IMG/VR virus record: IMGVR_UViG_3300049781_000059
Coordinates: 10,199-74,198 of that record
Direction: 5' to 3' (one strand)
Length of the DNA stretch: 64,000 bases
Source: a virus
Taxonomy: Duplodnaviria > Caudoviricetes
The translations under genes and the position numbers were made by a program. Under the pieces are notes generated by a model. That model was not told where the DNA came from, did not search any database, and worked only from the letters and a program-made list of their open reading frames with translations. Positions 2,512-22,262 of this stretch are shown piece by piece. How positions within the stretch are numbered: the first letter of the stretch is position 1; every line of letters starts with the position of its first letter.

Positions 2512-3351
2512 TTAGAGGATGATCCCGAAGGCGCGGATGAACGACTGGACCTTGTTGTATTCGGCGCCGCCGAACCCGGCCCCCGCCTGCACGAGCAGGT
2601 TCTGCGTCGCCGACGCGCCGGGCGCCACGGTGAAGTTGAAGACCTTCGTGAGCTGGGTGTGGATGTCGCGCAGGGTGCCGCTTCCGGTGTTTGCGACGCG
2701 CTGCATCTCGTCGCCGGTGATGCCCCACGTTGCGCCGCTGTTGGGTGGCAGGTCTATGTCGACGTCGATCTCTTCCTCGCAGATCACGAACATGGGCCTG
2801 CACGGGTCCGGGTTTGTGATCGTCAGGGCGTGGTGTGCGATCTCGGTGGGGTATGCGGCCGGGACCAGGGTCGGGTCGTTGTTGTCGGTCGTCGACTGCT
2901 GCTGGAAGAACGTTCGGCCGCGCGGCAGTGTCCGCAGGCGGCCGGTGCTGTCGCAGTAGAGGTCGCCGCCTTCGGTGTCGAGGTTGCAGGTGAACGGCCA
3001 TGTGCCGGTCGGGACGACGAGTGGTGTTCCGGTGCTGCCGTTGCCGTTGAGGCCGCAGCCGGAGACGACGGTTGCGCCGCCGCCTGCAGGCACCATCAGC
3101 CCGTCCGGTCCACACACGGCCGCGTTGGCAGGATCAGGGTCGAGGCGTAGCCCGGCAGCCAGCGGTGACGCGGTCGTCCCAGACCCTGCGAGCGTCACGC
3201 ACGAGTCATCGTTCGCGACTTCGAGCGGAGGCGGCGGATCGGCGCTGACGACGACGGGGACGCCCGGCGAGCCGTTGCCTTCAAGAGTGATGCCGGGGCC
3301 AGCAACGAAGGAGCAATTGCAGCGGTCTGTGCCGCATCCGCATCGAGCCAA
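2512..3351 (-). CDS. Minor tail / fibre protein
   Basis: TTG 3351, MARCGCGTDRCNCSF..., 279 aa; repeated (T/L)xGxG(S/T)xxxP shaft-like units and a beta-rich C-terminus. Confidence 0.7.
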   Translation of the reverse strand: MARCGCGTDRCNCSFVAGPGITLEGNGSPGVPVVVSADPPPPLEVANDDSCVTLAGSGTTASPLAAGLRLDPDPANAAVCGPDGLMVPAGGGATVVSGCGLNGNGSTGTPLVVPTGTWPFTCNLDTEGGDLYCDSTGRLRTLPRGRTFFQQQSTTDNNDPTLVPAAYPTEIAHHALTITNPDPCRPMFVICEEEIDVDIDLPPNSGATWGITGDEMQRVANTGSGTLRDIHTQLTKVFNFTVAPGASATQNLLVQAGAGFGGAEYNKVQSFIRAFGIIL

Positions 3352-3380
3352 GGTGATCAACCCTCGAAACTGGGTTCTTG

Positions 3381-3415
3381 GCTCGGCCCACAACCAGCAG
3401 CTAGCACACAGGATA
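3381..3415 (-). promoter_or_regulatory. Conserved late-gene leader element, copy 1, with -10-like TATCCT
   Basis: Plus strand GCTCGGCCCACAACCAGCAG 3381-3400; AGGATA at 3410-3415; 29 nt from the start codon at 3351. Confidence 0.8.
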
Positions 3416-3448
3416 CCCACCGGTCGTCGGCTGCCAGGCGCCTCGCGG

Positions 3449-4171
3449 TCAGCCGTAGAGTTCCAGCATGACGAGCCCGGTGCCGCCAGCGGCGCCATCG
3501 TTGCGGTTACCGCCGATGGACGCCGCGCCGCCTGCTCCGGCTCCGTAGCCGCGCGGCAGTGTGCCGACGCCGTCATTTGAGCGGGCGAAGCCGCCGTAGC
3601 CGAAGCGGGAGTCGCCACCACCGCCGGACACGCCAAGGCCCCCCGACAGTCGGAACGCCGTACCTCCGGCGCTGCCACCGTATGCGAGCTGCCCTGTCCC
3701 CGCTCCCGGGCCCGGCACGCCGACCTGCGTGTTGAGCGTGGTCCCCGACGTCATGTTCGCCGGGGAGCCATCGCCGCCGTTCGCGAGAACAATGCCGGCG
3801 AAGCTGCTGCTACCTCCGGCGCCTCCGGCGTTGTTGCCCTCCCCGCCCGCGCCGCCGGCACCGACAGCGATCGTCTCGACGTCACCGAGCAGGTCCGCCT
3901 CAAGGAGCGACATGGAGTAGCCGCCGCCCGCGCCGCCGGGCCGCGTGATCGCCTCGTCGTTCGCTGCGTCCGCGCCGGCCGATCCCCCGCCGCCGCCCTG
4001 CACCTGTACGCGGATCCTGGCGAGCCACGGGTAATCCTCTTTGCGGAACTGGTAGGTGCCGGGCTCCTTGAAGACGAGGATCTCACGGAGTCCCATCGTG
4101 CCCGGATTGAGGCACAGTTCACCGGCGTCATTCACGTTGAAGTACTCGCCACAGGCGCAGACACTCGCCAC
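3449..4171 (-). CDS. Glycine-rich minor tail protein
   Basis: GTG 4171, MASVCACGEYF...; RIRVQVQGGGGGS, GGAGGGYS, IAVGAGGAGG and GGTGLVMLE motifs typical of phage Gly-rich tail domains. Confidence 0.8.
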   Translation of the reverse strand: MASVCACGEYFNVNDAGELCLNPGTMGLREILVFKEPGTYQFRKEDYPWLARIRVQVQGGGGGSAGADAANDEAITRPGGAGGGYSMSLLEADLLGDVETIAVGAGGAGGEGNNAGGAGGSSSFAGIVLANGGDGSPANMTSGTTLNTQVGVPGPGAGTGQLAYGGSAGGTAFRLSGGLGVSGGGGDSRFGYGGFARSNDGVGTLPRGYGAGAGGAASIGGNRNDGAAGGTGLVMLELYG

Positions 4172-7402: not shown

Positions 7403-10400
7403 CTACATTCCGTAGGCCAGCGCCATGCGGTGCATGACACGGCGGGCCGTCGCGTCGGGGTCGCCGACCGCCGCCATGTTGAAGACGGGGGCGATCGTCA
7501 CTGTCTGCGCGCCACTGCCGCTCCCAGAGGGTTCGGCGCCGATGATGCCCATCAGCCCGGACTGGGCGACGAGCTGCCGCGCCCGCTTGGGTTTCGTCAA
7601 CGGGATGATCACCTCGGGTCCGGCCTCGCCGACGAGTGCGTGCGTGGGCCCCCACACCATGCCGCCCTCCGCGAACGGCAAGTACTTTTTCACGGCGTCG
7701 GGCAGCCCGCTCTTGATCGAGGACATGATCCGCCCGCCGATGTCCCCCAGAGCACCGATGATCTTCCCCGGGAGTCCCGTGAAGAGGCCGACAATCCCGG
7801 AGATCAGACTGGACACGGCGCTCTGCACCCCTCCGACCGCGCTTGTGAAAGCACTGGAGATCTTCGATCCGACCGACGACAGCGCCGATCCGATCTTGCC
7901 GGGCAGTCCCGAGAAGAACGACACGACGGACGAGCCGAAGCTGCGCGCCGCGCCGAGCGCCTGCGTACCGGCCGACGTGACAACCGAGGTGATCTTTCCG
8001 GGCAGCGCCGAAATCGCGGACGCAGCCCGCCCGGGGAGCTGCTGGAAGAACGACGCCGCCGACGACAGGAACCCCGAGATTGCGGAGGTCGCCGTCGAGA
8101 ACGCCGAACTGAGGACGCCGAGCAGCGCCGCGCCCAGCGACTGCAGGGCCGACACGATCCGGCCGGGCAGCTCGGTGAAGATGAACACCACGGCCGCGAT
8201 CGCCGTCAGCAACGCGATCGCGAGTCCGGCGATGGCTTGGACGAACAGATCGACGAGCAGGCCGGGCAGTGCCTGGAGGACGGCGAGGATCTGCCCTGGC
8301 AAGCCCGTGAAGAACGTGATCACCGTCGTGAACGCCGTCGTGATCCACGTGCCGATCGTCGTCACGAGCGTGGAGAAGAACACCGAGATCGTCGACCCCA
8401 GGCTCGACAGCGCCCCGACGATCATCGTCGGCAGGTTCGTGATGAACGTGACCGCGCCGGTCAGGAAGCCGAGCAGCCCGGACAGGACCCCCACCACGGC
8501 GGAGATCACCGGCACGACGGCCTGGATGATCAGCCACGACTCGAAGGCGATCGCCGCCTGGAGCAGCGGCGCGACGATCGAGAGGATCTGCCCGACGAGC
8601 GGCGCCAGGCTCGCCACGAACTCGGCGATCGGCGGGACCAGCGGCAGGATCGCGTCGACCAGCGCCAGGAACACCTGGATCAGCGACGGCAGGATCGGCA
8701 GCAGCGCGCCGATGATCTGGTTGATCAGCGGCAGGAACGCGTTGACGACCTGGATCGCCGCGTCCGCGAGCGCCGTCAGCAGCGGCGCCAGCCCGGTGAT
8801 CACGGACGCGAGCGCCCCACCGAGCGCGGCAGCGAGCGGCAGCAGAGCTTGAGCCACCCGCGCGAAGGCGTCCGCGAGGGGCGGCAGGACCGGCATCAGC
8901 GCGCCGACCAGGGCGGCGATGATCGGCTGGAACAGTGTGACCAGGTTTTGCAGGACCGGCGCGAGGACCGTCGCCAGCGACGCAACGAGCTGGCCGACGA
9001 GCGGCAGGATCGGCGCCAGCGCGGTGATCACTCCGCCGATCGCCTCACCGACCGGGCCCAAGCTGGGGCCGATGACGGCGAAAGCGTCGGCGAGGCCCTG
9101 CGCGACCGCGGACAGGCTCGGGGCGATCGCGGCCAGCGCCGGGCCCAGGGCGTTGACGACGCCGACGATCGCCGGGCCGATCGTCGTGAAGATCGGCATG
9201 AGGGCCGGGGCGATCGCGCCGACCTGCTGCACAAGCGCGGACAGGATCGGCCCGAGCTGCTGCGCGATCGTCCCGACCGTGCGGAAGATGTTGCCGATCG
9301 CGTCCTGGCCGGCGGCGGAGTTGACGAACTCGGCGAACTGGCCGGTGATCCGCTGCAGGTTCGCGAGGAGCCCGCCGCCGGACGCGTTCGCGGCCTGGAA
9401 GACGCCGGAGAGGATCTGCCCGACGTTCGACGCGATCGCGCCGAGTTGCCGGAACACATCGAGCGCCCCGCGGACCTCCTCGACGGCCTGCCCGGACGCG
9501 GCGAGCGTCGACAGCCAGGTTCCGAACTCGGCGCCGATCTGGGCGATGCTCGCGCCGACCTGCGGGCCGAACGCCTCCAGGACGGCGGCGGCGATGTCGA
9601 GGAGACCGGCGGCGACCGGCACGATCGCCGCCTGCAACCCGGAGGCGGCCTGCGTCGTACCCTGAATGATCGTCCGCAGCGGCACGAGTGCCTGCTGTGA
9701 CGCGGCGAACTTGAGGCCCTCGCTGGCTGCCTTGCCGAACTCGGCGGACAGCGCCGCCAGTTCCGTGCGCAGCGGTAGCAGGTTTCGCAGCGCCCCTTCG
9801 ACCTGCCCGGCGAATTGGGCAAAGAACGACTGCTGGATCGCCTGCTGAACGGCCTGGAGTTCGGGCGCCAGCTCCCGCACCGCGCGGACTGCGGTCTGCG
9901 CGGCCGGGGCGAGCTTGTCGAGCGCCTCCTGGAACTCCTCGGCGCTGCCCGTCAACGCCGCCGACAGAGCGTCGGATACGCCGAGGACGGCGAGCCGCAG
10001 CGTGTTGATGGCGACCTGCGCTCCGGCGACGGCAGCGGGCAGCGCGGCGACGATGCCGGCGGCGGGGGCCAGCGCAGCGACGAGCCCGCCGACCGCGGAG
10101 GCGGCGCTCGCCGCGGCGATCCCCACGGCGCCCAGTACGAGAAGCTGCTGCAGCGCCCCGGCGACACGGCCGGCGATGCCGCCGAGGCCGCCCAGCGCAC
10201 GCGTCAGCCGGTCCGAGTCGACATCGACGTCCGCCCGGACCGTGACATCCGGCGGCCGGTAGCCGCGGATGCGCCGGTCGAGGTCGTCGAGGTCCGGGAC
10301 AACACGGATCGAAACCTCTTCGCCGGCGAGCGCCGCGCGGATCCGGTCGACGAAGCCGGTCAGGTCCGGGGCGACCGGCAGGTTGATCGAGCCGAGGCCG

Positions 10401-10651
10401 CGGAGCCCGTCGAGGACTTGGGCGTCGAACCGGGACAGGTCCGGGTCGACACGGACGGACACGGCGGCGGCGTCGAGGCCGCGTTGAATGTTCCGGCGGA
10501 TCTGAGTGCCTGCGTCACGCGTCGCACGGTCCAGGGCGCGTTTGATGCGGAGGCCGACGTCACGGGCGTCAGCGACCGCATCACTGTCGTCGAGCGTGAT
10601 CGTGATGCGCGCGGAGCCGTAGTCCTCGCTGTCACCGGCTGGGGTGGTCAC
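7403..10651 (-). CDS. Tape measure protein
   Basis: 1082 aa Ala/Leu/Gly-rich amphipathic repeats, C-terminal FAEGG...HALVGEAGPEVIIPL; follows the chaperone pair. Confidence 0.93.
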   Translation of the reverse strand: MTTPAGDSEDYGSARITITLDDSDAVADARDVGLRIKRALDRATRDAGTQIRRNIQRGLDAAAVSVRVDPDLSRFDAQVLDGLRGLGSINLPVAPDLTGFVDRIRAALAGEEVSIRVVPDLDDLDRRIRGYRPPDVTVRADVDVDSDRLTRALGGLGGIAGRVAGALQQLLVLGAVGIAAASAASAVGGLVAALAPAAGIVAALPAAVAGAQVAINTLRLAVLGVSDALSAALTGSAEEFQEALDKLAPAAQTAVRAVRELAPELQAVQQAIQQSFFAQFAGQVEGALRNLLPLRTELAALSAEFGKAASEGLKFAASQQALVPLRTIIQGTTQAASGLQAAIVPVAAGLLDIAAAVLEAFGPQVGASIAQIGAEFGTWLSTLAASGQAVEEVRGALDVFRQLGAIASNVGQILSGVFQAANASGGGLLANLQRITGQFAEFVNSAAGQDAIGNIFRTVGTIAQQLGPILSALVQQVGAIAPALMPIFTTIGPAIVGVVNALGPALAAIAPSLSAVAQGLADAFAVIGPSLGPVGEAIGGVITALAPILPLVGQLVASLATVLAPVLQNLVTLFQPIIAALVGALMPVLPPLADAFARVAQALLPLAAALGGALASVITGLAPLLTALADAAIQVVNAFLPLINQIIGALLPILPSLIQVFLALVDAILPLVPPIAEFVASLAPLVGQILSIVAPLLQAAIAFESWLIIQAVVPVISAVVGVLSGLLGFLTGAVTFITNLPTMIVGALSSLGSTISVFFSTLVTTIGTWITTAFTTVITFFTGLPGQILAVLQALPGLLVDLFVQAIAGLAIALLTAIAAVVFIFTELPGRIVSALQSLGAALLGVLSSAFSTATSAISGFLSSAASFFQQLPGRAASAISALPGKITSVVTSAGTQALGAARSFGSSVVSFFSGLPGKIGSALSSVGSKISSAFTSAVGGVQSAVSSLISGIVGLFTGLPGKIIGALGDIGGRIMSSIKSGLPDAVKKYLPFAEGGMVWGPTHALVGEAGPEVIIPLTKPKRARQLVAQSGLMGIIGAEPSGSGSGAQTVTIAPVFNMAAVGDPDATARRVMHRMALAYGM

Positions 10652-10679
10652 CGGGCACCCTCACGAAGTCGTGAATGGT

Positions 10680-10700
10680 GCCCGGCCCAGAACCAGTCGG
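10680..10700 (-). promoter_or_regulatory. Conserved leader element, copy 5
   Basis: GCCCGGCCCAGAACCAGTCGG; 28 nt from the tape-measure start; the nearest -10-like TAATCT lies further away (10732-10737). Confidence 0.75.
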
Positions 10701-10734
10701 CGGCGGCAGCTACTGCGCTGTCGCGATCTCCAGA

Positions 10735-11106
10735 TTATCTGCTACGTGCGCTTCCGAGGCGTGCGTCCTCGTTGGCGACCTGGGACATGAGTGCCTGCGC
10801 GGCGGCAAGGTCAAGGCGCGGCTTGGCCTGCCGTGCCCGGCCCTCACTCGATCTGCTGCCGCGTGCGTGGGGTGGCGGCGCGTACAGTTTCGCCCTGTTG
10901 CGCTGCCGTGCGGTGTCGTCCTCGGCTGCCGCGTCCATGGCGGCTTCGGCCGCGTTCAGCAGACGTTTCAGCGTCCACGTGTGCGGGTCGACGCCTTGGA
11001 GGGCGAGACTCCCGTCGAACGCCTCCCAGCTTGCGGCGAGGCTGTCGCAGATCCGGAAGACGGCATAGTAGGGCGGTTCCCGCCCCCGAACAGTTCGACG
11101 ACCCAT
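10735..11106 (-). CDS. Tail assembly chaperone, frameshift-extended (T-like) frame
   Basis: Minus-1 frame overlapping the 3' part of 10968-11504 (...EPPYYAVFRICDSLAASWEAFDG...); lies between the chaperone and the tape measure; no convincing start of its own. Confidence 0.7.
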   Translation of the reverse strand: MGRRTVRGREPPYYAVFRICDSLAASWEAFDGSLALQGVDPHTWTLKRLLNAAEAAMDAAAEDDTARQRNRAKLYAPPPHARGSRSSEGRARQAKPRLDLAAAQALMSQVANEDARLGSARSR

Positions 11107-11504
11107 TCGAGGAGTTCGACGATCACGCGGCTCGGCAGTCGCAGCGCGTCGACGACGCGTGCGCCTTCGTGCTGGTCGGCGAAGGCGCCCGCCTCGTCGA
11201 AGTCCTGGAAGGAGTCGAGGATCTTGCCGCCTTGGACGACGTCGAGGCGGGTGAAGAACTCGGCGGACTCGGCGAGCATCTGCCGGGCGAGGAACACGCG
11301 CACGGCGCGCATCGTCCGCCGCAGATCGTCCGTGTCGGCAGCGGTCAGGTTCTCCAGGTCGACGCCCTTCGCCTGCTGCGACTGACGCAGTTCGGCGTAG
11401 GCGTCCATGAAGTCGTCGCCGAACACCTCAGGCTCGAACAGGAGCTGGTGTTCGCCGATGGCGGCGACGTGGGGTTCTGTGTTGAGGGCGAACGTCTTCT
11501 GCAC
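10968..11504 (-). CDS. Tail assembly chaperone (G-like)
   Basis: 178 aa, position upstream of the tape measure; ...LLEWVVELFGGGNRPT followed by a low-complexity tail. Confidence 0.78.
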   Translation of the reverse strand: MQKTFALNTEPHVAAIGEHQLLFEPEVFGDDFMDAYAELRQSQQAKGVDLENLTAADTDDLRRTMRAVRVFLARQMLAESAEFFTRLDVVQGGKILDSFQDFDEAGAFADQHEGARVVDALRLPSRVIVELLEWVVELFGGGNRPTMPSSGSATASPQAGRRSTGVSPSKASTRTRGR

Positions 11505-11531
11505 AGGTCTGGTCCCTGTCTCCCGTTCCTC

Positions 11532-11566
11532 GCCCGGCCCACAACCAGCGGCTTGTACGTAGGGTA
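11532..11566 (-). promoter_or_regulatory. Conserved leader element, copy 6, with -10-like TACCCT
   Basis: GCCCGGCCCACAACCAGCGG 11532-11551; AGGGTA 11561-11566; 27 nt from start 11504. Confidence 0.85.
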
Positions 11567-14313: not shown

Positions 14314-15438
14314 TCAGTCGGAGATCTTGTGGAGGGACAGTTCGTACTGGTACGGCTGGCTGACGCCGATGTTGTTCGGGATGCCGTTGTAGACCTGGTC
14401 GCCGGTGACGACGTCGCCGACGTTCAGGAGGATCCGCTTCGTGATCGTGTTCGACGTGGCCGTGGGGCCCATCACGAGTGTGGTGGTGCCGTTGATGTCC
14501 TGAGCGTCGTAACCCCACACCATCAGCTCCTGGACCTTGACCGGGGTCCCGTTGACGAGCATCCGGTGATCTGCGTCGATGCTGGCGCTGTGCGTGCCCG
14601 CGGCGGCTCCCGTGGTTTGTACGCCGATGCTGCCGGTCTGCTGGATCTCGTACACGCCGGCTTCCGTTGCGGTGAACGTCTGGACTCCGTCGGCCCACTG
14701 GGGTGAGAGGCGGGCGCCCACGTTGAAGGTGTCCGCCGGTCCTTCCGTCACGTCGATGTCGACGCTGCGGCCGGTGCCTACCGGCGCCGGGCCGCTCCCG
14801 GCCACTGGCGCCACCACAGTCGTGTCGGGCTCAGCGATCGAGTGGACCACGTATGGGTCGCTGGCCGTGCCGGTACCTGTCACGGTCGCTGTAGTGCCGT
14901 CGCCCTGAACGATGGTCGCCGTGCCGCCGCCGGAGCTGGTCGCGTATAGGCGGCCGTCGCTGCCGACGGTCAGCGCGTTACCCGCGTCCGCGGACGGGGC
15001 GACGAGGAGGCCTGTGCCGGCCGCTTCCAGGCCGTTCGGTTCCGGCGCCACGATGACGTCCGCCGTGATCGGGCTGCCGCTCGTGCCGTCACCCGACAGG
15101 TTCACGGTTGGCGTGTCGTTGGCGACGATCGGTGCCACGCCCGCGGGGACACTGAGGACCGCAGCGGTGATCGGGTTGGCGGGCGTACCGTCGCCGGACA
15201 GGTCGACCGTCGGCGTGTCCTGCGTCGCTACCGCCGTCAGACCGCTCCCGCCGCCGCCCGTACCCGGAATCCATGCGGTCCCGTTCCAGACGAGCGTGTT
15301 ACCCGCTGCCGGCGGGGTCGTGCCAGTGTCGACGTCCCCCAGCGCGTTGATCGAGCAGCCGCCGAGCTGTGTACATGCGAACGTGCCGCCGCTGGCCGTA
15401 CCCGAGCCACCGCAGCAACCCCAAGCTTTGGCCCCCAT
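14314..15438 (-). CDS. Gly/Thr-rich structural (fibre or decoration-like) protein
   Basis: MGAKAWGCCGG...; repeats DTPTVxLSGDGTxxxPITA; beta-rich C-terminal domain. Confidence 0.62.
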   Translation of the reverse strand: MGAKAWGCCGGSGTASGGTFACTQLGGCSINALGDVDTGTTPPAAGNTLVWNGTAWIPGTGGGGSGLTAVATQDTPTVDLSGDGTPANPITAAVLSVPAGVAPIVANDTPTVNLSGDGTSGSPITADVIVAPEPNGLEAAGTGLLVAPSADAGNALTVGSDGRLYATSSGGGTATIVQGDGTTATVTGTGTASDPYVVHSIAEPDTTVVAPVAGSGPAPVGTGRSVDIDVTEGPADTFNVGARLSPQWADGVQTFTATEAGVYEIQQTGSIGVQTTGAAAGTHSASIDADHRMLVNGTPVKVQELMVWGYDAQDINGTTTLVMGPTATSNTITKRILLNVGDVVTGDQVYNGIPNNIGVSQPYQYELSLHKISD

Positions 15439-15463
15439 GGGGCTACCTCCTTTGTCGTGGTCT

Positions 15464-15501
15464 TGGGTAGCGGCGCGGCCGACGAGCCGCGCCGCTACCC
15501 A
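15464..15501 (-). terminator. Perfect 16-bp stem-loop
   Basis: TGGGTAGCGGCGCGGC-cgacga-GCCGCGCCGCTACCCA. Confidence 0.75.
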
Positions 15502-15508
15502 CAGCCCG

Positions 15509-18500
15509 TTACGCGCTGGCGCAGCTGCGCACGGTGCCGAGGGGCGTGTAGTCGTTGCCTTGCAGGTCGGTGTCCCTGGTCACGACCGTCCCGTCCAGGT
15601 CCTGCACCCAGCGGATGAACGTGCCCGCGTCATCGCAGAGGGTGATGGGCTGTTCCTGCTTGCACGGGATGATCCGGGTCCCGTCGGGCAACGTGTCGTG
15701 CCGGTTCTCGAACTGGTCCAGGTAGTAGACGTCCCCGGAGCAGCAGACCATCTTCGTCCAGCTGGCCTGCCCTGGGACGGCGTAGGTGAGGATGAAGTGC
15801 GCGATCACGCCCGCACCGTTGCTGGCGTCCGGCTGCGAGGCGTTCTCATTTACCTCGAAGTACAGGAAGTTCTCACCAGCGACGGCGCCCGTGAGGGGGA
15901 CTGGGGCCTGCTTGTACGGTGTCGCCGTCGAGTAGAAGCCGCCGCCGTTCACCCAATCACCGTCGTTGATGCGGTAACGCACCGGCACTTGGTCGGCGTT
16001 CAACGTGGTGATTTCCATCTTGACCGTGCTCAGGTCGGCGGCGGCCGGGATCGTGAACGACGACCGGGCCCACCAGTTCGATGGGTTCGCGATCTGCGGG
16101 CCCTCGCCCGGCAGGCCCGTGCTGACGACCATGGCACCCGCGTGGGGGGCTATCCATCCGGCCGTGGGCGAGTTGGGTTGGCCGTTGTTGCGGGTCGCAG
16201 AGTCCGCGGTCTGCCAGGCAGTGCCGGGGTACTTCTTGTTGTACATCGGGTACCAGGTGGTGACCGCAGACGGGTCGCTGCCTCCGCCCGAGGGTGCCCA
16301 CGTGAAGGTGTCCGCCTCCGTCCCGTCGTCCCGCTTTTCCGGGTTGGACACGAACTGGACTTCGCCGGTCGCGCGCGGCGTGACGCAGATCTGTACCGGT
16401 TCGCAGCACGGCTCGGGTTGGCACAGTACGGCCGCGCCGCGTGGGGTGTAGCTGGTGGCCCCGTCCATCAGGGTGTCGATGACGGCCGTGACCGACCCGT
16501 CACACCCGTGGCAGATGCGCCGCATGAATTGGCCCGGGGGCGTCATCTCGATGGCACCCAGCCACAGAGTGCGCTGTACCCCGCAGACGTCGTGCGTGGC
16601 CGTACCAAGCCAGTCCACGATGACCGATGTGGTGAGGCTGGTGGTGCGCAGCCGTGCGGCCCGCAGCCGGGTCGGGTTGGCCATGTCCGCGCAGATGTTC
16701 GCCTGGTCCTGCTGCGCCGTGACACACAACAGGCCGGTCACTGGGTCGAACGTGTATCCGCTGGGCAGCTCGACCGGTTCCACCGTGGTCGGAAGCTGGA
16801 CGCAGTTGCCGGTGGCGCCCGGCGTGTCGTCGTAGGCCAGGTGGATGCTGAACTCGATCGTCACCGGGACGGACGCGCCGATGGTGTACGCAGTACCCAC
16901 CGTGTTCGGCGCAGGCTCGCCGTTGCCCCACCACGCGCCGTCAGCGTTGGCGATCTTGCTCTGCACCGCCCCCGCCGGACCTGCCGCGTCCCCGCGCACG
17001 GTGTAGACCACGCCGTTGCTGAGTGTCTGTGTGGACGCGTTCAGGATACGGATGGTGGCCGGATCGTCCCCACCGTCGTCGCACAGGACGATCGTTTCGC
17101 AGTCGCTGCACGACGACGTGTCGGGGCACAGGCCGACCACGCCCGACGGGGTGTAGACGGCCGAGCCGTCGAGGGTGGTGTCCCGGACGGACGTCACCTC
17201 ACCGTCACAGTCCCGGCAGATGGTCCGCAGGAAAGGCACCGACGGCACCGTGCTGATCGAACCGGTCCACGATGTGCGGAACGAGCCCTGGAAGGCGTAA
17301 CGGCCGCCGAGCCACGTTGTGGTGAACTCGGACACCGGCCCCAGAGTCCGGAAGCGCGGCGAGTGGGCCAGATCGGGGCTCGCCATGAGAGCCGTCTGTT
17401 GTGCCACCGTGAGGCCGTGGTCTGGGCCCACGGTGACGCGGGACGTGGCGGCGTCGAACGTCCAGCCGGGCGGCAGGAAGACCGGCGTGACGTTCGGCGG
17501 AAGCTGCATCGTGTTGGCGGTCGGACTGGACGCCTGGTAGATGAAGAACACACTGAACTCGGTGACGGTGGGACGAGCCAACGTGAACCGATACGGAAGA
17601 ACCTGTGTCAGCGGGAACGACTCGGGGTTGCCCCACCAGGCACCGTCGGTGTTGCTGATTTCCGACGTGACGGGCGAGCCGAACGAGGACGTAGCGCCAC
17701 TGGTCGATGTCCATCCGATGCCGTTGGACATGGTGCCGCTGCTGACGTTCGCGCCGTAGATCGTGGCCTCGTCGTCGGACTGGCCGTCGCACAGGATCTG
17801 CGACTCGCAGTCGCCGCAGTCTCTTGCCGTCGGGCAGTTGCCGACCGTGCCGAGTACCTGGTACGCCGTGACACCGTCCGGCAGGTAGTCGAGCGTGGTG
17901 TCCGGCAGTCCGTCGCAGCCGTAGGTGATGGCGCGCACGAACGGAACGACTGTGATCAGCGTGGACGTCACCGTCTCAGGACGCACGAGAAGGTCACGCG
18001 TGGTCCCGGCATTCGTTGTCCAGTCGGAGACGCGAATGGTGACCGTGCCGGACGACGGCGCCGTGAACGCGAGCGGCGCCCGGAATCCCAGCGGCCCACT
18101 CGCAGTACTGCCGTTGGACAGGTTCTCGATACGGCTGGCGATGACGGCACTACCGTCAAGGATCTCCAGCAGGTACATGGCCTCAGGCAGCGGCGTGACG
18201 CCCCCGCCGTTACCGTTCCACCCGGCCTGATAGTTGAACTCATACGGCTGGCCCGGCACCACACTGGACACGGTTCCCGTGGCCACACCGTTGACCGGCG
18301 TCTGCCCCTCGGAGAAGACGAGCGTGCCGCTGCTGTTGTAGACGCTGCCCGTCAGCGTGAAGCCGCCGCCCGGTGTGGGGATCGGTGGCTGCTGCGGCGG
18401 GACCGTGTCGCACAGTTCGATCAGTTCCGTGTCGCCGCAGTCGGGCTCGGCCGGGCAGTCGATCGGGTTGGCCGGGATGTAGGGCTGCGTGAAGTCCCCG

Positions 18501-19558
18501 TCGAGCCACGTTCCGAGGAGCGTCGGCGGGGTGTCGCTCGTGGTGCTCACGGCCCACAGCTCGATGTACCGGTTGATGACCGTACTGTCGCCGTTGACGT
18601 CGTCGCAGCCACAGCGTTCGACGACCTGCCGGGCACTCGCCGTGTCGCCAGTCGGGCCGCAGGCGCCGATCTCGCCTTGCACGGCGTAGATGGTGGTGCC
18701 GTCGAGGGTGGTGTCCGTGACGGCGGCAGTGCCGGTGCAGGTGCGGCAGATCGTCCGGAGGAACGGCACGGCCTGTGTCTCGTCGGTCCCGGGCACGCCC
18801 GGCCCGAGGAGGGAGACGTCGTCAACGAGGGCGTCAATGAAGTCGCCGCCCACTTGATCGCTGAAACGGACCGTCATCTCGGTGTCAGTGGCGACGATCG
18901 GCGCGGGGCCGACCACGCCGTCGGCCGGCCACTGCGGGCCGCCGCTCGTTTCCACGGGGGCGACGGTCTCGGAGTAGAGGACCGCACCCGACCCGTCGAC
19001 CACCTCCACGAGGACGCTTTGGGGAGTGGTCCCGCCCGTGCCCCAGATACCGATGCGGGCCGACAGGGTGTAGGTCAGGCCGGGGGTGACGGTCACCGTC
19101 TGCTCGGCCGACCCTGCCGGGTTGTTGTCCGCTGACAGGTCGAGGAACCCAACCGACCCGTCCGGGCTGCTGGACGGGACGTATCGCGCGCCCCCGGTCA
19201 GCGTCCACCCCGAGGTGTCCGCCGCGAAGTTGCCGTTGGTGATGCGCTCGGGGGTCTCACCCGGCGTAGAGGCCGTGGTGACGTCGCACAGGAGCAGCGT
19301 CTCGCACGTGCACGAGTCGGGCGGCGGGCAGGCCTGCAGGGTGCCTTGCGGCACGTAGACGGCTCCCGTTGCGGGGTCGACGGTGCGCGTGCCGATACGG
19401 TCGCCGCTGCTGGCGTCGTAGACCGGCTCCACGAGCACGGTGGCGGCCACGGTGCCGTCGGCGAGGACGTCGCACAGAACGACCGGTTCGACGTCAACGC
19501 GCGCACTGGCCGCCGGATTACTCAACAGGACTGGCTGGCCGCAGCCGCATCCGCTCAC
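15509..19558 (-). CDS. Large modular Cys-repeat protein with inserted carbohydrate-binding-like domains (putative head fibre / adhesin), 1349 aa
   Basis: Start reassigned to GTG 19558 (overlaps the upstream stop), MSGCGCGQPV. Recurrent CETxxLCD...PFLRTICRxCDG...DTTLDG..Y.P.G.V..C units; ERITNGNFAADTSGW resembles the start of CBM4/9- or DUF642-like domains. Confidence 0.75.
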   Translation of the reverse strand: MSGCGCGQPVLLSNPAASARVDVEPVVLCDVLADGTVAATVLVEPVYDASSGDRIGTRTVDPATGAVYVPQGTLQACPPPDSCTCETLLLCDVTTASTPGETPERITNGNFAADTSGWTLTGGARYVPSSSPDGSVGFLDLSADNNPAGSAEQTVTVTPGLTYTLSARIGIWGTGGTTPQSVLVEVVDGSGAVLYSETVAPVETSGGPQWPADGVVGPAPIVATDTEMTVRFSDQVGGDFIDALVDDVSLLGPGVPGTDETQAVPFLRTICRTCTGTAAVTDTTLDGTTIYAVQGEIGACGPTGDTASARQVVERCGCDDVNGDSTVINRYIELWAVSTTSDTPPTLLGTWLDGDFTQPYIPANPIDCPAEPDCGDTELIELCDTVPPQQPPIPTPGGGFTLTGSVYNSSGTLVFSEGQTPVNGVATGTVSSVVPGQPYEFNYQAGWNGNGGGVTPLPEAMYLLEILDGSAVIASRIENLSNGSTASGPLGFRAPLAFTAPSSGTVTIRVSDWTTNAGTTRDLLVRPETVTSTLITVVPFVRAITYGCDGLPDTTLDYLPDGVTAYQVLGTVGNCPTARDCGDCESQILCDGQSDDEATIYGANVSSGTMSNGIGWTSTSGATSSFGSPVTSEISNTDGAWWGNPESFPLTQVLPYRFTLARPTVTEFSVFFIYQASSPTANTMQLPPNVTPVFLPPGWTFDAATSRVTVGPDHGLTVAQQTALMASPDLAHSPRFRTLGPVSEFTTTWLGGRYAFQGSFRTSWTGSISTVPSVPFLRTICRDCDGEVTSVRDTTLDGSAVYTPSGVVGLCPDTSSCSDCETIVLCDDGGDDPATIRILNASTQTLSNGVVYTVRGDAAGPAGAVQSKIANADGAWWGNGEPAPNTVGTAYTIGASVPVTIEFSIHLAYDDTPGATGNCVQLPTTVEPVELPSGYTFDPVTGLLCVTAQQDQANICADMANPTRLRAARLRTTSLTTSVIVDWLGTATHDVCGVQRTLWLGAIEMTPPGQFMRRICHGCDGSVTAVIDTLMDGATSYTPRGAAVLCQPEPCCEPVQICVTPRATGEVQFVSNPEKRDDGTEADTFTWAPSGGGSDPSAVTTWYPMYNKKYPGTAWQTADSATRNNGQPNSPTAGWIAPHAGAMVVSTGLPGEGPQIANPSNWWARSSFTIPAAADLSTVKMEITTLNADQVPVRYRINDGDWVNGGGFYSTATPYKQAPVPLTGAVAGENFLYFEVNENASQPDASNGAGVIAHFILTYAVPGQASWTKMVCCSGDVYYLDQFENRHDTLPDGTRIIPCKQEQPITLCDDAGTFIRWVQDLDGTVVTRDTDLQGNDYTPLGTVRSCASA

Positions 19559-21000
19559 AGTCGTACTCCTTGCGTGTAATTGACGATGACGGTGCCGTCG
19601 GTGGCGGTGATGGTCAGGGGGCCGGTGAGGGAGGCGTCGCCGTCGTGGACGAGGCTCCACGTCGCCGTCTCGCCGTCTCGGAGGGTGCTGGTTCCGTCCG
19701 CTGTCGTGATCGCCCCGGTGCCGTCGTGCGCAATGGCGGTGACGGAGTGGATCAAAGGGGTGGAGGCGGCGTCCCAGGACTGACCCGGGGCGAGTTCCCG
19801 GCGGCGGACCTGCGCACCGAATGCCGCGGGCGCCCCCTGGTCGTCGTCGGCGTCGCAGTCCACCGGGTTCAGAGGGGTGTACGGGCCGCTGAGATCGCAC
19901 AGGTAGGTGCCGAGGGTGCTGACCGTTCCCTGGCAGTCGACGCCGAGCAGCTCGATGTACCAGGTGTCGGCGATGCCGTCCCCGTCGGTGTCGTCGCAGC
20001 GGTCGGCCTGGATGATGTTCTGGGCGCCGCAGTCGCCGTCGCAGAAGCCGACGGTGCCAGCCACCGGGTACGTGCTGCCGTCTGGCGTGTAGTCGGTGTG
20101 CCCGGTGATCTGGCCGTTCTCGTCGCGGGCGTAGTCGCGGAGGAAGCGGCGCACGCTGCCGTCGGCGAGCGTGTCACACAGCACGACAAGGTCCTTCTCC
20201 GGCTGTGTGACACCGGCCGGGCAGGTCGTGATCTCGCCTTGTGGTGTGTACGTCTGGCCGGTAGCGGCGTTGATGAGGCGCACCCCGGATACGCTGCCGT
20301 CCGAGTTGTACGTGTACTCGATCAGGACGAGCCCGAATACGGTGCCGCTGGCAGGGTCGATGTCGCAGAACGTGCCGCCAGTCGACACGCTGCGCGGTTC
20401 ACCGCACGCGACCGTGCCCACTGGCGGCTGCCCGGCCGAGAAGACACCGCTGACCAGGTTCACCCAGCCTTCTTGCCGAACGATGCCGTCGCAGTCGCGG
20501 GTGACGATGGCCGCGATGGGGGTGCCGTCGGCGAGGCACAGGCCGAGCGTCGCCAGCGGCGCCCGCTGATCGGCGCAGTCGGAGCCGCCGTCGCAGGAGC
20601 GGACGTCGCCGACGACGAGGTGCGGTGTCTCCCCGTCGACTTCCACGTCGACGTAGGCGGCGGTGCCGTCGGACAGGAACGTGAACTTCCGCAGGAACGG
20701 GCGGCCGGAGTCGTCGCAGAGCATCTCGGTGTGGCACTGCATCGTGCCCTGCTCGCAGTCGACCGGTGCGACCGGCGTGTACGGCGTCGACGGGTCGTCC
20801 TGGTAGATGACGACGAGTTGGCTCGTGCCGTCCTGCTTGATGCACCACAGTTCGCTGTAGGTGGTGTCGGGCTGGCCGTCGCCGTTGGTGTCGTCGCAGC
20901 GCAGGACACACGTGGTGGTGACGCACGTCGGCGGGCACTCGCATTCCCCGCCGCCGCCTCCCCCGGCGCCGCAGGTGCAGCCGCTGTAGGAGATGGCCAT
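19555..21000 (-). CDS. Cys-rich repeat structural protein with DxxGDG motifs, 481 aa
   Basis: Same repeat units as the downstream gene but without insertions; DDTNGDGQPD and DDTDGDGIAD. Confidence 0.7.
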   Translation of the reverse strand: MAISYSGCTCGAGGGGGGECECPPTCVTTTCVLRCDDTNGDGQPDTTYSELWCIKQDGTSQLVVIYQDDPSTPYTPVAPVDCEQGTMQCHTEMLCDDSGRPFLRKFTFLSDGTAAYVDVEVDGETPHLVVGDVRSCDGGSDCADQRAPLATLGLCLADGTPIAAIVTRDCDGIVRQEGWVNLVSGVFSAGQPPVGTVACGEPRSVSTGGTFCDIDPASGTVFGLVLIEYTYNSDGSVSGVRLINAATGQTYTPQGEITTCPAGVTQPEKDLVVLCDTLADGSVRRFLRDYARDENGQITGHTDYTPDGSTYPVAGTVGFCDGDCGAQNIIQADRCDDTDGDGIADTWYIELLGVDCQGTVSTLGTYLCDLSGPYTPLNPVDCDADDDQGAPAAFGAQVRRRELAPGQSWDAASTPLIHSVTAIAHDGTGAITTADGTSTLRDGETATWSLVHDGDASLTGPLTITATDGTVIVNYTQGVRL

Positions 21001-21400: not shown

Positions 21401-22237
21401 TCAGCAGCACGTCGAGATCCTCACTGCCGCCGCCTCACAGCACGCCACCTCGATCACAGAAGTGCGCTCGGCGAGGACGTACCGGTCATTCAGGCGGGTA
21501 TCGATACTCCCGGCCTCGGTGGGCGGGTTGATGTCGAGCGGCCCGCGGCGCACCCGGACCGGGCCCGTCACGTACAGCCACGCCTCCCCGTCGGCGGGCG
21601 CCATGCACGTGGCGCCGCCCACGTTCGTGGCGTACCCGGCGCCGAAGACGACGCCGTTGCCCATGAGGGTCTCCGGGCATTGGGTGTCGCGGGTGCGGGT
21701 GGCGATGTTGCAGCAGCCGAGCAGTGCCGCCGCCCCGGCAGGAATGTGCAGGATGCCTTCGCCGCCGTACTGCTCGGCCAGCCAGCCTTCGAGCGCGGCG
21801 ACGCCCTGCGCGGCCGGGAGCGCCCCCGAGCCGGGGGTGAGGTCGTTGCCTTCGGCCATCGTGCACAGGGCGTTCAGCATGAACCAGGATTCGAGGGCGC
21901 GCTGCTCGCCCATGCGGAGGGTTTCCGCAGCATGCTCTACGGCCTCGTCGTAGGTCATGCCGAACGTGGAGCACGTCGACCCGGCATACACGGTCACCGG
22001 GTCGAACTCGCACACCCCGGGCCGGTCGAAGATCTTCGATGCCGGGTTCGGCACGGTCGGGGGCGGACAGTCCCGCTCCCACGTGTGCGTTTCAGCGCAC
22101 GACAGCGGCACGAACTGGGTGCCGTTCAGTTCGTGCATGTCGGTAACGTCTACGACCTCTACGCACCCGCCGAGGAGGCCGTAGGGGCTGGGATTGCCAC
22201 GGATGGGGTCTACGGTTTTGCGCATCCCTGCCGCCAT
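21401..22237 (-). CDS. Second capsid-type protein (putative pentamer / minor capsid subunit)
   Basis: 278 aa directly after the major capsid gene; PSPYGLL, PVTVYAGSTCS and VVFGAGY motifs resemble the gene at this position in cluster-B-like actinophages. Confidence 0.55.
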   Translation of the reverse strand: MAAGMRKTVDPIRGNPSPYGLLGGCVEVVDVTDMHELNGTQFVPLSCAETHTWERDCPPPTVPNPASKIFDRPGVCEFDPVTVYAGSTCSTFGMTYDEAVEHAAETLRMGEQRALESWFMLNALCTMAEGNDLTPGSGALPAAQGVAALEGWLAEQYGGEGILHIPAGAAALLGCCNIATRTRDTQCPETLMGNGVVFGAGYATNVGGATCMAPADGEAWLYVTGPVRVRRGPLDINPPTEAGSIDTRLNDRYVLAERTSVIEVACCEAAAVRISTCC

Positions 22238-22262
22238 CTGCCTCACGCCCTCTCAAGTCCGG

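Follow-up and report, generated by a model that had tools for sequence, protein, structure and literature searches.

We describe a phage protein built as a string of small cysteine-bounded repeats, each offering one fixed loop at which a whole domain can be inserted. It is the 1349-amino-acid (aa) product of a gene, hereafter gene A, in a 64,000-nt window (the whole stretch of DNA analysed, positions 10,199 to 74,198 of record IMGVR_UViG_3300049781_000059; G+C ~69%) of a 74,198-bp IMG/VR virus contig of the Caudoviricetes rated complete by CheckV. The architecture of this protein and its modular evolution are well supported. Judged by genomic context, protein fold and evolutionary pattern, the protein's most likely function is that of a multivalent glycan adhesin carried on the virion, by which host range is set or widened. 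We consider it probable that gene A and its upstream neighbour and paralogue, gene B, form a surface appendage on the virion of a Streptomyces-type siphovirus (Woodruffvirus/BG-cluster-like), where they would bind glycans of the host cell envelope.

Scaffold unit and insertion socket

The reading frame of gene A, proposed in an original prediction made from the sequence alone, proved to be a real gene. Its third-position GC (GC3) is 0.88, its GTG start at 19558 lies just behind an AAGGAG ribosome-binding site, and the N-terminal cysteine motif of its homologues begins directly after that GTG. The start also shares bases with the TGA stop of the 481-aa gene B (a GTGA overlap), to which gene A is translationally coupled. 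A plus-strand open reading frame (ORF) overlapping gene A (14912–19135, 1407 aa, GC3 0.63) was rejected as a shadow ORF.

Aligning 34 diverse uninterrupted units gave a base unit with a 49-position consensus, in which four positions never vary (L, the first and last Cys, and a Gly late in the unit) and D, F, R, D, G and Y are nearly invariant. Gene A carries tandem ~49-aa units of this kind, with L-C-D near the start followed by F-L-R, D-x-x-L-D-G, Y-x-P-x-G and a terminal Cys. The repeat motif first proposed, of about 50 aa, had also included a CxxC in the linker and a CxxC after FLR; these accompany the inserts, and only two cysteines are invariant. A profile built on the unit's C-terminal half matches gene A six times (residues 46–77, 265–300, 539–575, 775–811, 1010–1046 and 1314–1346, with per-unit E-values from 1e-3 to 3e-19) and gene B three times. 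In a search of the phage's own genome with the unit profile, these two genes were the only carriers. Between the matches in gene A lie either short linkers or long stretches, and each long stretch follows a linker that ends in L-C-D. Units 1 and 7 are uninterrupted and gene B is scaffold-only, in keeping with the short loop that had been predicted for the terminal units and the neighbouring gene.

AlphaFold2 models calculated with purpose-built alignments span residues 1–385 and 775–1349 of the gene A protein, with a mean predicted local distance difference test score (pLDDT) of 82.7 (81 sequences) and 88.5 (69 sequences), respectively. An uninterrupted unit is modelled as a small beta-meander (strands 26–31, 37–47, 54–60 and 73–75 in unit 1). 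In filled units the insert separates the first two strands, which match each other in length and register. Strands 84–98 and 258–272, which flank the first insert, are 15 residues each and their positions sum to 356 at both ends, while those of strands 819–827 and 1010–1017 sum to 1836–1837. The extra cysteines found around inserts fall on the same register (85+271=356; 817+1019 = 820+1016 = 1836), as would be expected if they paired across the strands of an antiparallel ribbon. We infer from the extent of the strands and from the sequence register that the N-half and C-half strands around an insert pair antiparallel, and the expectation that the flanking halves fold together around the inserted domain agrees with predicted strands that are equal in length and share one antiparallel register.

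The socket, that is, the fixed insertion site, is the tip of the unit's first hairpin. In five units of gene A the models suggest that both strands of the hairpin extend to form a stalk, with an autonomous 155–207-aa beta-sandwich at its tip. The beads-on-a-string form that had been predicted is the look of these monomer models, and is accepted here for the two spans that they cover.

A second type of unit, with an acidic, calcium-binding-loop-like D-x-x-G-D-G-x-x-D motif, occurs once in gene A (18455–18658) and twice in gene B (19855–20010 and 20755–20905, all on the minus strand). The DNA of these three copies is 74–80% identical over 54 nt (family D1).

Cysteine pairs around the inserts

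Among ~890 units collected from homologues, uninterrupted units mostly have one cysteine in the N-half and none at the start of the C-half (1,0). Units bearing an insert mostly have one extra cysteine per side (2,1; 30%) or two per side (3,2; 22%). By this distribution, extra cysteines are gained and lost as pairs across the insert, which agrees with the strand pairing derived from the models. Unit 3 of gene A has a single extra pair, C374 and C548, and unit 2 has a CxC in place of CxxC. The single-pair state argues for disulfides over zinc sites with four cysteine ligands (Cys4).

The opposite view would take the CxxC...CxxC quartets, present in 22% of filled sockets, as Cys4 sites resembling zinc-ribbon knuckles, by which the stalk would be stable even in the reducing cytoplasm where virions are assembled. 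The quartets do end a two-stranded ribbon, with the outer cysteines just outside the predicted strands. We nevertheless find zinc binding doubtful, because single pairs, outer cysteine with outer cysteine, are the commoner state (30% of insert-bearing units, unit 3 among them) and two cysteines are insufficient for a Cys4 site. The CxC of unit 2 also departs from the CxxC pattern, the two invariant cysteines of every unit are themselves a lone pair, and a related type of virion is demonstrably disulfide-rich. A 2026 preprint reports ~1,700 disulfides across the virion of mycobacteriophage Jabs, including links between receptor-binding proteins and the distal tail protein Dit (10.64898/2026.07.24.740622). 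By analogy, disulfides formed after lysis are plausible for an actinophage virion. Disulfide stabilisation, which the original prediction had assumed, is therefore kept as the preferred explanation, with the paired gain and loss of cysteines and this disulfide-rich virion as its basis.

Homologues and exchange at the socket

The only family match of either gene was PHROG 18824, which has no functional annotation. Gene A matches it over five stretches (E 4.3e-64) and gene B with E 4.1e-175. Its members are gp17 and gp18 of Streptomyces phage Xkcd426, gp18 of Mischief19 and PIS_002 of Saccharomonospora phage PIS 136. These phages carry true homologues, to which none of the sources searched assigns an architecture or a function. 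Searching 50,697 phage records by tblastn gave no match to gene A at E 1e-5, and returned Xkcd426, Mischief19 and PIS 136 for gene B. A single-protein pattern search of IMG/VR with gene A likewise found nothing; the IMG/VR homologues were recovered with an alignment of gene B homologues. Among viral structures in BFVD the top matches were the models of PIS_002 and of Xkcd426 gp17 and gp18, and the others were weak and fibre-like. The ESM Atlas gave no usable feature match for gene B, whose own model there is poor (pLDDT 0.57).

The unit profile matched 700 proteins (clusters at 50% identity) at E<=1e-3 among 1.84 billion cluster representatives. Among them, 133 family representatives have 4–13 units and 0–6 large inserts each, 16 of them having none, and the five inserts of gene A are near the family maximum of six. 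Related loci were collected from 22 actinomycete genomes and 51 IMG/VR contigs (73 loci), with Streptomyces, Kitasatospora, Nonomuraea, Streptosporangium, Planotetraspora and Planomonospora among the host genomes. Many copies lie in prophages. Most loci have two consecutive scaffold genes, here called gene 1 and gene 2 in their order, and often a third, small one. All 50 long homologues (843–2109 aa) and 79 homologues resembling gene B are named hypothetical. A Pfam scan of 31 diverse family members found nothing recurrent, and neither the unit nor most of the inserts are represented by a Pfam model. In the library of papers searched, no description of the family, or of an equivalent in Streptomyces phages, was found. 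Of the original statement that no family of this architecture has been described, this much is supported: the protein is covered by no family of described function.

Insert families were defined by clustering at 70% mutual coverage, single linkage having merged all inserts into one; the commonest cassette family of the homologues, F0, may still lump subfamilies. By these families the architectures of homologues are mosaic, with F0, F1, F2, F3, F8–F11 and others combined in differing numbers and orders. The same socket can be found filled or empty: for 47 filled sockets there is an empty counterpart with at least 65% identity over 35 flanking residues, and in the best such pair (94% flank identity) a turn of 7 residues stands in place of 172 residues. 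It can also be re-filled, as 208 pairs of filled sockets with flanks at least 65% identical (94% in the best pair) hold inserts without detectable similarity. Insert number, order and kind thus vary at one loop in ~120 homologues and 73 loci. The prediction of a modular scaffold is borne out, and the possibility that homologues would have invariant, co-linear domains is not. Repeats of the socket flanks can also be seen in the DNA of gene A (60–88% identity over 25–60 nt), and these modest repeats could support recombination.

Two further elements recur among the homologues. A domain of ~85 aa ends 93 of the 133 representatives and, in almost all loci, is common to two to four proteins per locus, namely gene 1, gene 2, the small one-unit third ORF and some proteins without units. 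In the window a profile of this domain matches gene B alone (19555–19845); the domain is absent from gene A, as it is from the closest relatives of gene A; an anchor, a tip or an assembly domain are candidate roles. A short Gly/Cys motif stands at the start of gene B, gene A, the 374-aa protein encoded next to gene A and PIS_002.

In three of the loci (L012, L016 and L017) gene 2 lacks the C-terminal domain, and a separate small ORF with one unit and the domain starts a few bases from its stop. The arrangement points to a split gene, or to a frameshift or recoding site at the junction.

Inserted domains of gene A

The boundaries of the five inserts fall within 3 nt of those originally proposed, with sizes of 155–207 aa (Table 1). 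Inserts 3 and 4 are paralogues, as had been noticed, with 38% of residues identical over 184 aa (E 7e-32). A more remote relationship links inserts 1 and 2, which both cluster in family F2 (BLASTP, 34% identity, E 8e-4).

Insert 1 had been likened to carbohydrate-binding modules (CBMs) of families 4 and 9, and at the level of the fold this is borne out. Fold comparison with VIA-align matched it to the CBM jelly roll of TmCBM61 (2xom) with Z 14.4 and a root-mean-square deviation of 2.7 A over 137/145 residues, and to CBM16, CBM4, CBM22 and CBM36 with Z 11–13. The distal domains of tailspike 4 (TSP4) of phage CBA120 and of fibre gp52 of Klebsiella phage Kp7 follow with Z 12–13. Residues 106–185 score 19.2 bits (E 1.6e-3) against Pfam CBM_4_9 (PF02018), below the gathering cut-off of 25.9 bits. 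Insert 5 (model positions 289–488) resembles the galactose-binding-like N-terminal sugar-binding domains of GH2 enzymes (Z 8.0–8.4) and CBM35/36/61 (Z 6.5–7.4), values to be read against a best Z of 7–8 that is given as typical background for this tool. On this evidence a CBM-like jelly-roll fold is predicted for two or more of the inserts, probably for three of the five. The proposed glycan binding has fold similarity on its side for inserts 1 and 5 and homology for insert 2, but inserts 3 and 4 lack a clear fold match. Searching the whole 575-residue model against the PDB with Foldseek returned low-scoring multi-domain noise only (template modelling score ~0.15), and phmmer found no PDB sequence matching the gene A protein at E<=1.

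Table 1 Features of gene A and its neighbours in the window
Feature	Position	Strand	Description
374-aa fibre-like gene	14314..15438	-	N-terminal Gly/Cys motif, two S-G-D-G-T motif copies, beta-rich C-terminus
Gene A	15509..19558	-	7 scaffold units, one type-2 unit and 5 inserted domains; PHROG 18824, E 4e-64
Unit 7, residues 1300-1346	15521..15661	-	Uninterrupted terminal unit; profile match 1314-1346
Insert 5, residues 1059-1265	15764..16384	-	Family F3; candidate galactose-binding-domain-like jelly roll
Insert 4, residues 827-1009	16532..17080	-	Family F0, mostly beta; AlphaFold2 block with pLDDT 71-96
Insert 3, residues 591-774	17237..17788	-	Family F0, paralogue of insert 4
Insert 2, residues 384-538	17945..18409	-	Family F2, distant paralogue of insert 1
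Type-2 unit, residues 301-368	18455..18658	-	Acidic D-x-x-G-D motif; model strands 309-359, pLDDT ~90
Unit 2 C-half, residues 265-300	18659..18766	-	PFLR..C..C..C; profile match; model strand 258-272
Insert 1, residues 92-264	18767..19285	-	CBM-type beta jelly roll (predicted)
Unit 2 N-half, residues 78-91	19286..19327	-	Linker with CxC, ends in LCD; model strand 84-98
Residues 1-77	19328..19558	-	N-terminal GCxCG-type Cys motif and uninterrupted unit 1
Gene B	19555..21000	-	481-aa scaffold-only paralogue: units, two type-2 units, ~85-aa C-terminal domain

Genomic context and rate of change

In the direction of minus-strand transcription the genes run from the large terminase through the portal, a MuF/protease fusion, a 548-aa capsid protein, phrog_779 and phrog_30321 to gene B, gene A and the 374-aa gene. 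The major tail protein, an adaptor, phrog_810 and the tape measure follow, then the minor tail and fibre genes and finally the endolysin. The capsid protein and its counterpart in Streptomyces phage Xkcd426 (Woodruffvirus, cluster BG), named 'major capsid hexamer protein', share 48% identity. That gene A lies between capsid and tail-tube genes, as first described, is not peculiar to this contig: the order portal, MuF, capsid, p779, p30321, scaffold genes and tail tube is kept in ~70 loci.

This position is neither obligatory nor exclusive. Gordonia phage Bakery has the capsid gene, a phrog_779 homologue, a small gene and the tail tube with no genes between the last two, so that the scaffold genes make up an optional island. 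At two loci the scaffold gene instead follows the tape-measure and minor-tail genes, in L064 (9917–12898) and in PIS 136 (PIS_002, 8728–11553; L076), so that the family occupies two positions in the structural module.

Against the nearest contigs (L024–L026), gene A varies far more than the virion genes around it. Identities are 89–92% for the terminase, 87–88% for the portal, 88% for the capsid, 93% for phrog_779 and 94–96% for the tail tube. In gene B they drop to 74–77% for the N-terminal and 53–56% for the C-terminal part, and in gene A to 62–66% for the first 92–99 residues and 31–47% for the remainder, which has no match in L026. Phage fibres and receptor-binding proteins usually keep their N-terminus while the rest of the chain diverges quickly. 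This pattern is seen here too: the first 77–92 aa are 62–75% identical across gene-2 homologues while the distal part diverges. Residues 1–77 are the best-conserved part of these homologues (~64% mean identity, alignment depth >50) and are a candidate virion anchor.

Virion site and function

Placement of gene A on the head, which the original prediction had entertained, is not upheld. Hoc and the head fibres of phi29 enhance adsorption from the head, and a protein of the same architecture could do so as head fibres or as a vertex decoration. The scaffold genes do directly follow those of the capsid hexamer, a probable penton and a small conserved protein, and precede the tail tube. Gene order is atypical in these phages, however, with the tail tube before the adaptor and, in Xkcd426, the tape measure near the terminase, and the members in PIS 136 and L064 lie within the tail-tip block, after the tape-measure and minor-tail genes. 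Jabs offers a further comparison. It is reported to build a T=9 capsid from two proteins, a hexon of 594 aa and a penton of 257 aa, with no decoration proteins, and its peripheral binding proteins, which bear CBM-like domains, are trimeric rods and heterotrimers (10.64898/2026.07.24.740622). The window phage has a similar two-capsid-protein layout by gene arrangement and size (548/281 aa), so a virion of this layout without capsid decoration, and with its binding proteins disulfide-linked to Dit, weakens, by analogy, the case for head fibres. Jabs differs from our phage in that the sections of its report consulted describe neither a two-Cys repeat scaffold nor display of domains in loops. We judge a head location unlikely and lean slightly towards the tail or neck, the tail being somewhat likelier than the head.

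The partner of Jabs' hexon protein also has a candidate counterpart here. The 281-aa phrog_779 protein (21401–22246, minus strand), encoded directly after the 548-aa capsid and annotated 'hypothetical' in all phage records examined, is a probable penton by its likeness in size and position to Jabs MCPp.

The products might also be accessory, moron-like proteins outside the virion, acting on an infected cell or a lysogen or inside it, for instance in superinfection exclusion or in cell-wall binding at lysis. The island is optional, highly variable and missing in related Gordonia phages, many copies reside in prophages, and a strong hairpin follows gene A, all of which would suit such a role. 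We regard it as very improbable, since the translations of genes A and B have no N-terminal signal peptide or membrane segment, both genes are co-oriented and coupled inside the late structural operon, the contrast between N-terminus and remainder is typical of fibres, and two lineages have the family in tail-fibre position.

Several points weigh against a glycan-binding virion appendage and against the details of our structural description. A common fold alone is no proof of sugar binding, and the Z of 8.4 for insert 5 sits only at the upper edge of the stated background. Insert 4, and by homology insert 3, has no convincing fold match, the best being the N-domain of the Sgo0707 adhesin at Z 7.2. 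Gene A is without the ~85-aa C-terminal domain of most members, so its attachment or tip may differ. The absence of the island from related Gordonia phages means that it is dispensable for virion assembly. Strand pairing and Cys–Cys distances are derived from secondary-structure extents and register, and the database name of every member is 'hypothetical protein'.

If the glycan-adhesin reading is correct, we would expect the conserved, Cys-rich N-terminus to anchor the protein to the particle, while the one or two extra cysteine pairs before and after each insert would staple the base of the stalk through disulfides that likely form after lysis. Several binding domains on one chain would permit multivalent, reversible adsorption, and recombination at the conserved socket flanks would exchange cassettes and so re-target host range. 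We propose, tentatively and as somewhat less likely than not, that this is a plug-and-play display scaffold: an undescribed ~49-aa disulfide-bounded fold with many equivalent hairpin sockets, whose binding cassettes actinophages may shuffle by flank recombination, in an appendage covalently tied to the virion through N-terminal cysteines after lysis. Such a system would be distinct from the swapping of fibre tips, from mutagenesis by diversity-generating retroelements and from insertions in evolved Dit proteins.

Comparison with other adhesion systems

One likeness in design principle is to bacterial RTX adhesins. In MpIBP, FrhA and an Aeromonas RTX adhesin, split ligand-binding domains emerge within extender repeats and project sideways from the stalk, and one chain can carry several different binding domains (PMC5550230, PMC10865825, PMC12077191). 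Gene A shares with these proteins the placing of a domain inside a repeat of a beads-on-a-string chain. The sequences are unrelated, the RTX repeats being ~100-aa, Ca-rigidified and Ig-like whereas the unit of gene A is a two-Cys ~49-mer, and the RTX adhesins are type-1-secreted surface proteins of Gram-negative bacteria rather than phage proteins. RTX and Big Pfam families were absent from gene A, gene B and the 31 representatives scanned, which places the scaffold outside the RTX adhesins.

Siphophages of lactic acid bacteria provide a parallel among phages. CBMs are inserted there in loops of evolved Dit, Tal, neck passage structure (NPS) and tail-tube (MTP) proteins, differ among closely related phages and mediate adhesion to host saccharides (PMC6669499, PMC7533335). 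Gene A has in common with them CBM-like domains inserted into loops of a probable structural protein. The proteins that receive the insertions in those phages have assembly roles of their own and one or two insertions each, whereas gene A is a dedicated repeat scaffold with many equivalent sockets. The family is new in detail and belongs to a known kind, the CBM-carrying phage adhesion proteins.

Neighbouring features

The 374-aa protein encoded after gene A has no Pfam or PHROG match. Its homologues adjoin scaffold genes in ~20 loci, including the tail-tip locus L064, and are absent from L024–L026. It looks like a fibre and may be an optional partner of gene A.

A few bases past the gene A stop lies a hairpin (15465–15500, minus strand) with a perfect, GC-rich stem of 15 bp and a loop of 6 nt. 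It has no T-run, and AAAGGAGG and the start codon (ATG) of the 374-aa gene follow it. This hairpin could be a terminator or attenuator, or could stabilise the mRNA and so tune expression inside the operon.

In the distal tail-fibre region an ORF on the minus strand (2512–3678) contains an internal R-C-G-C-G...C-N-C cluster that resembles the N-terminal motifs of genes A and B. Its product may take part in the same cysteine cross-linking scheme.

Significance

Host recognition by phages of Streptomyces and other actinomycetes is poorly understood, and the family described here is common in actinomycete phages (700 clusters at 50% identity, many from prophages) and entirely unannotated. The paired-cysteine pattern extends the recent finding that actinophage virions are disulfide-rich. 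If our reading of gene A is right, a compact natural scaffold that tolerates the insertion of whole domains would be of interest in protein engineering and for re-targeting laboratory phages. It would also identify a major and readily recognisable determinant of host range, and show that phages have a further, new route to multivalent adhesins, by way of a dedicated repeat scaffold with one fixed insertion loop per unit.

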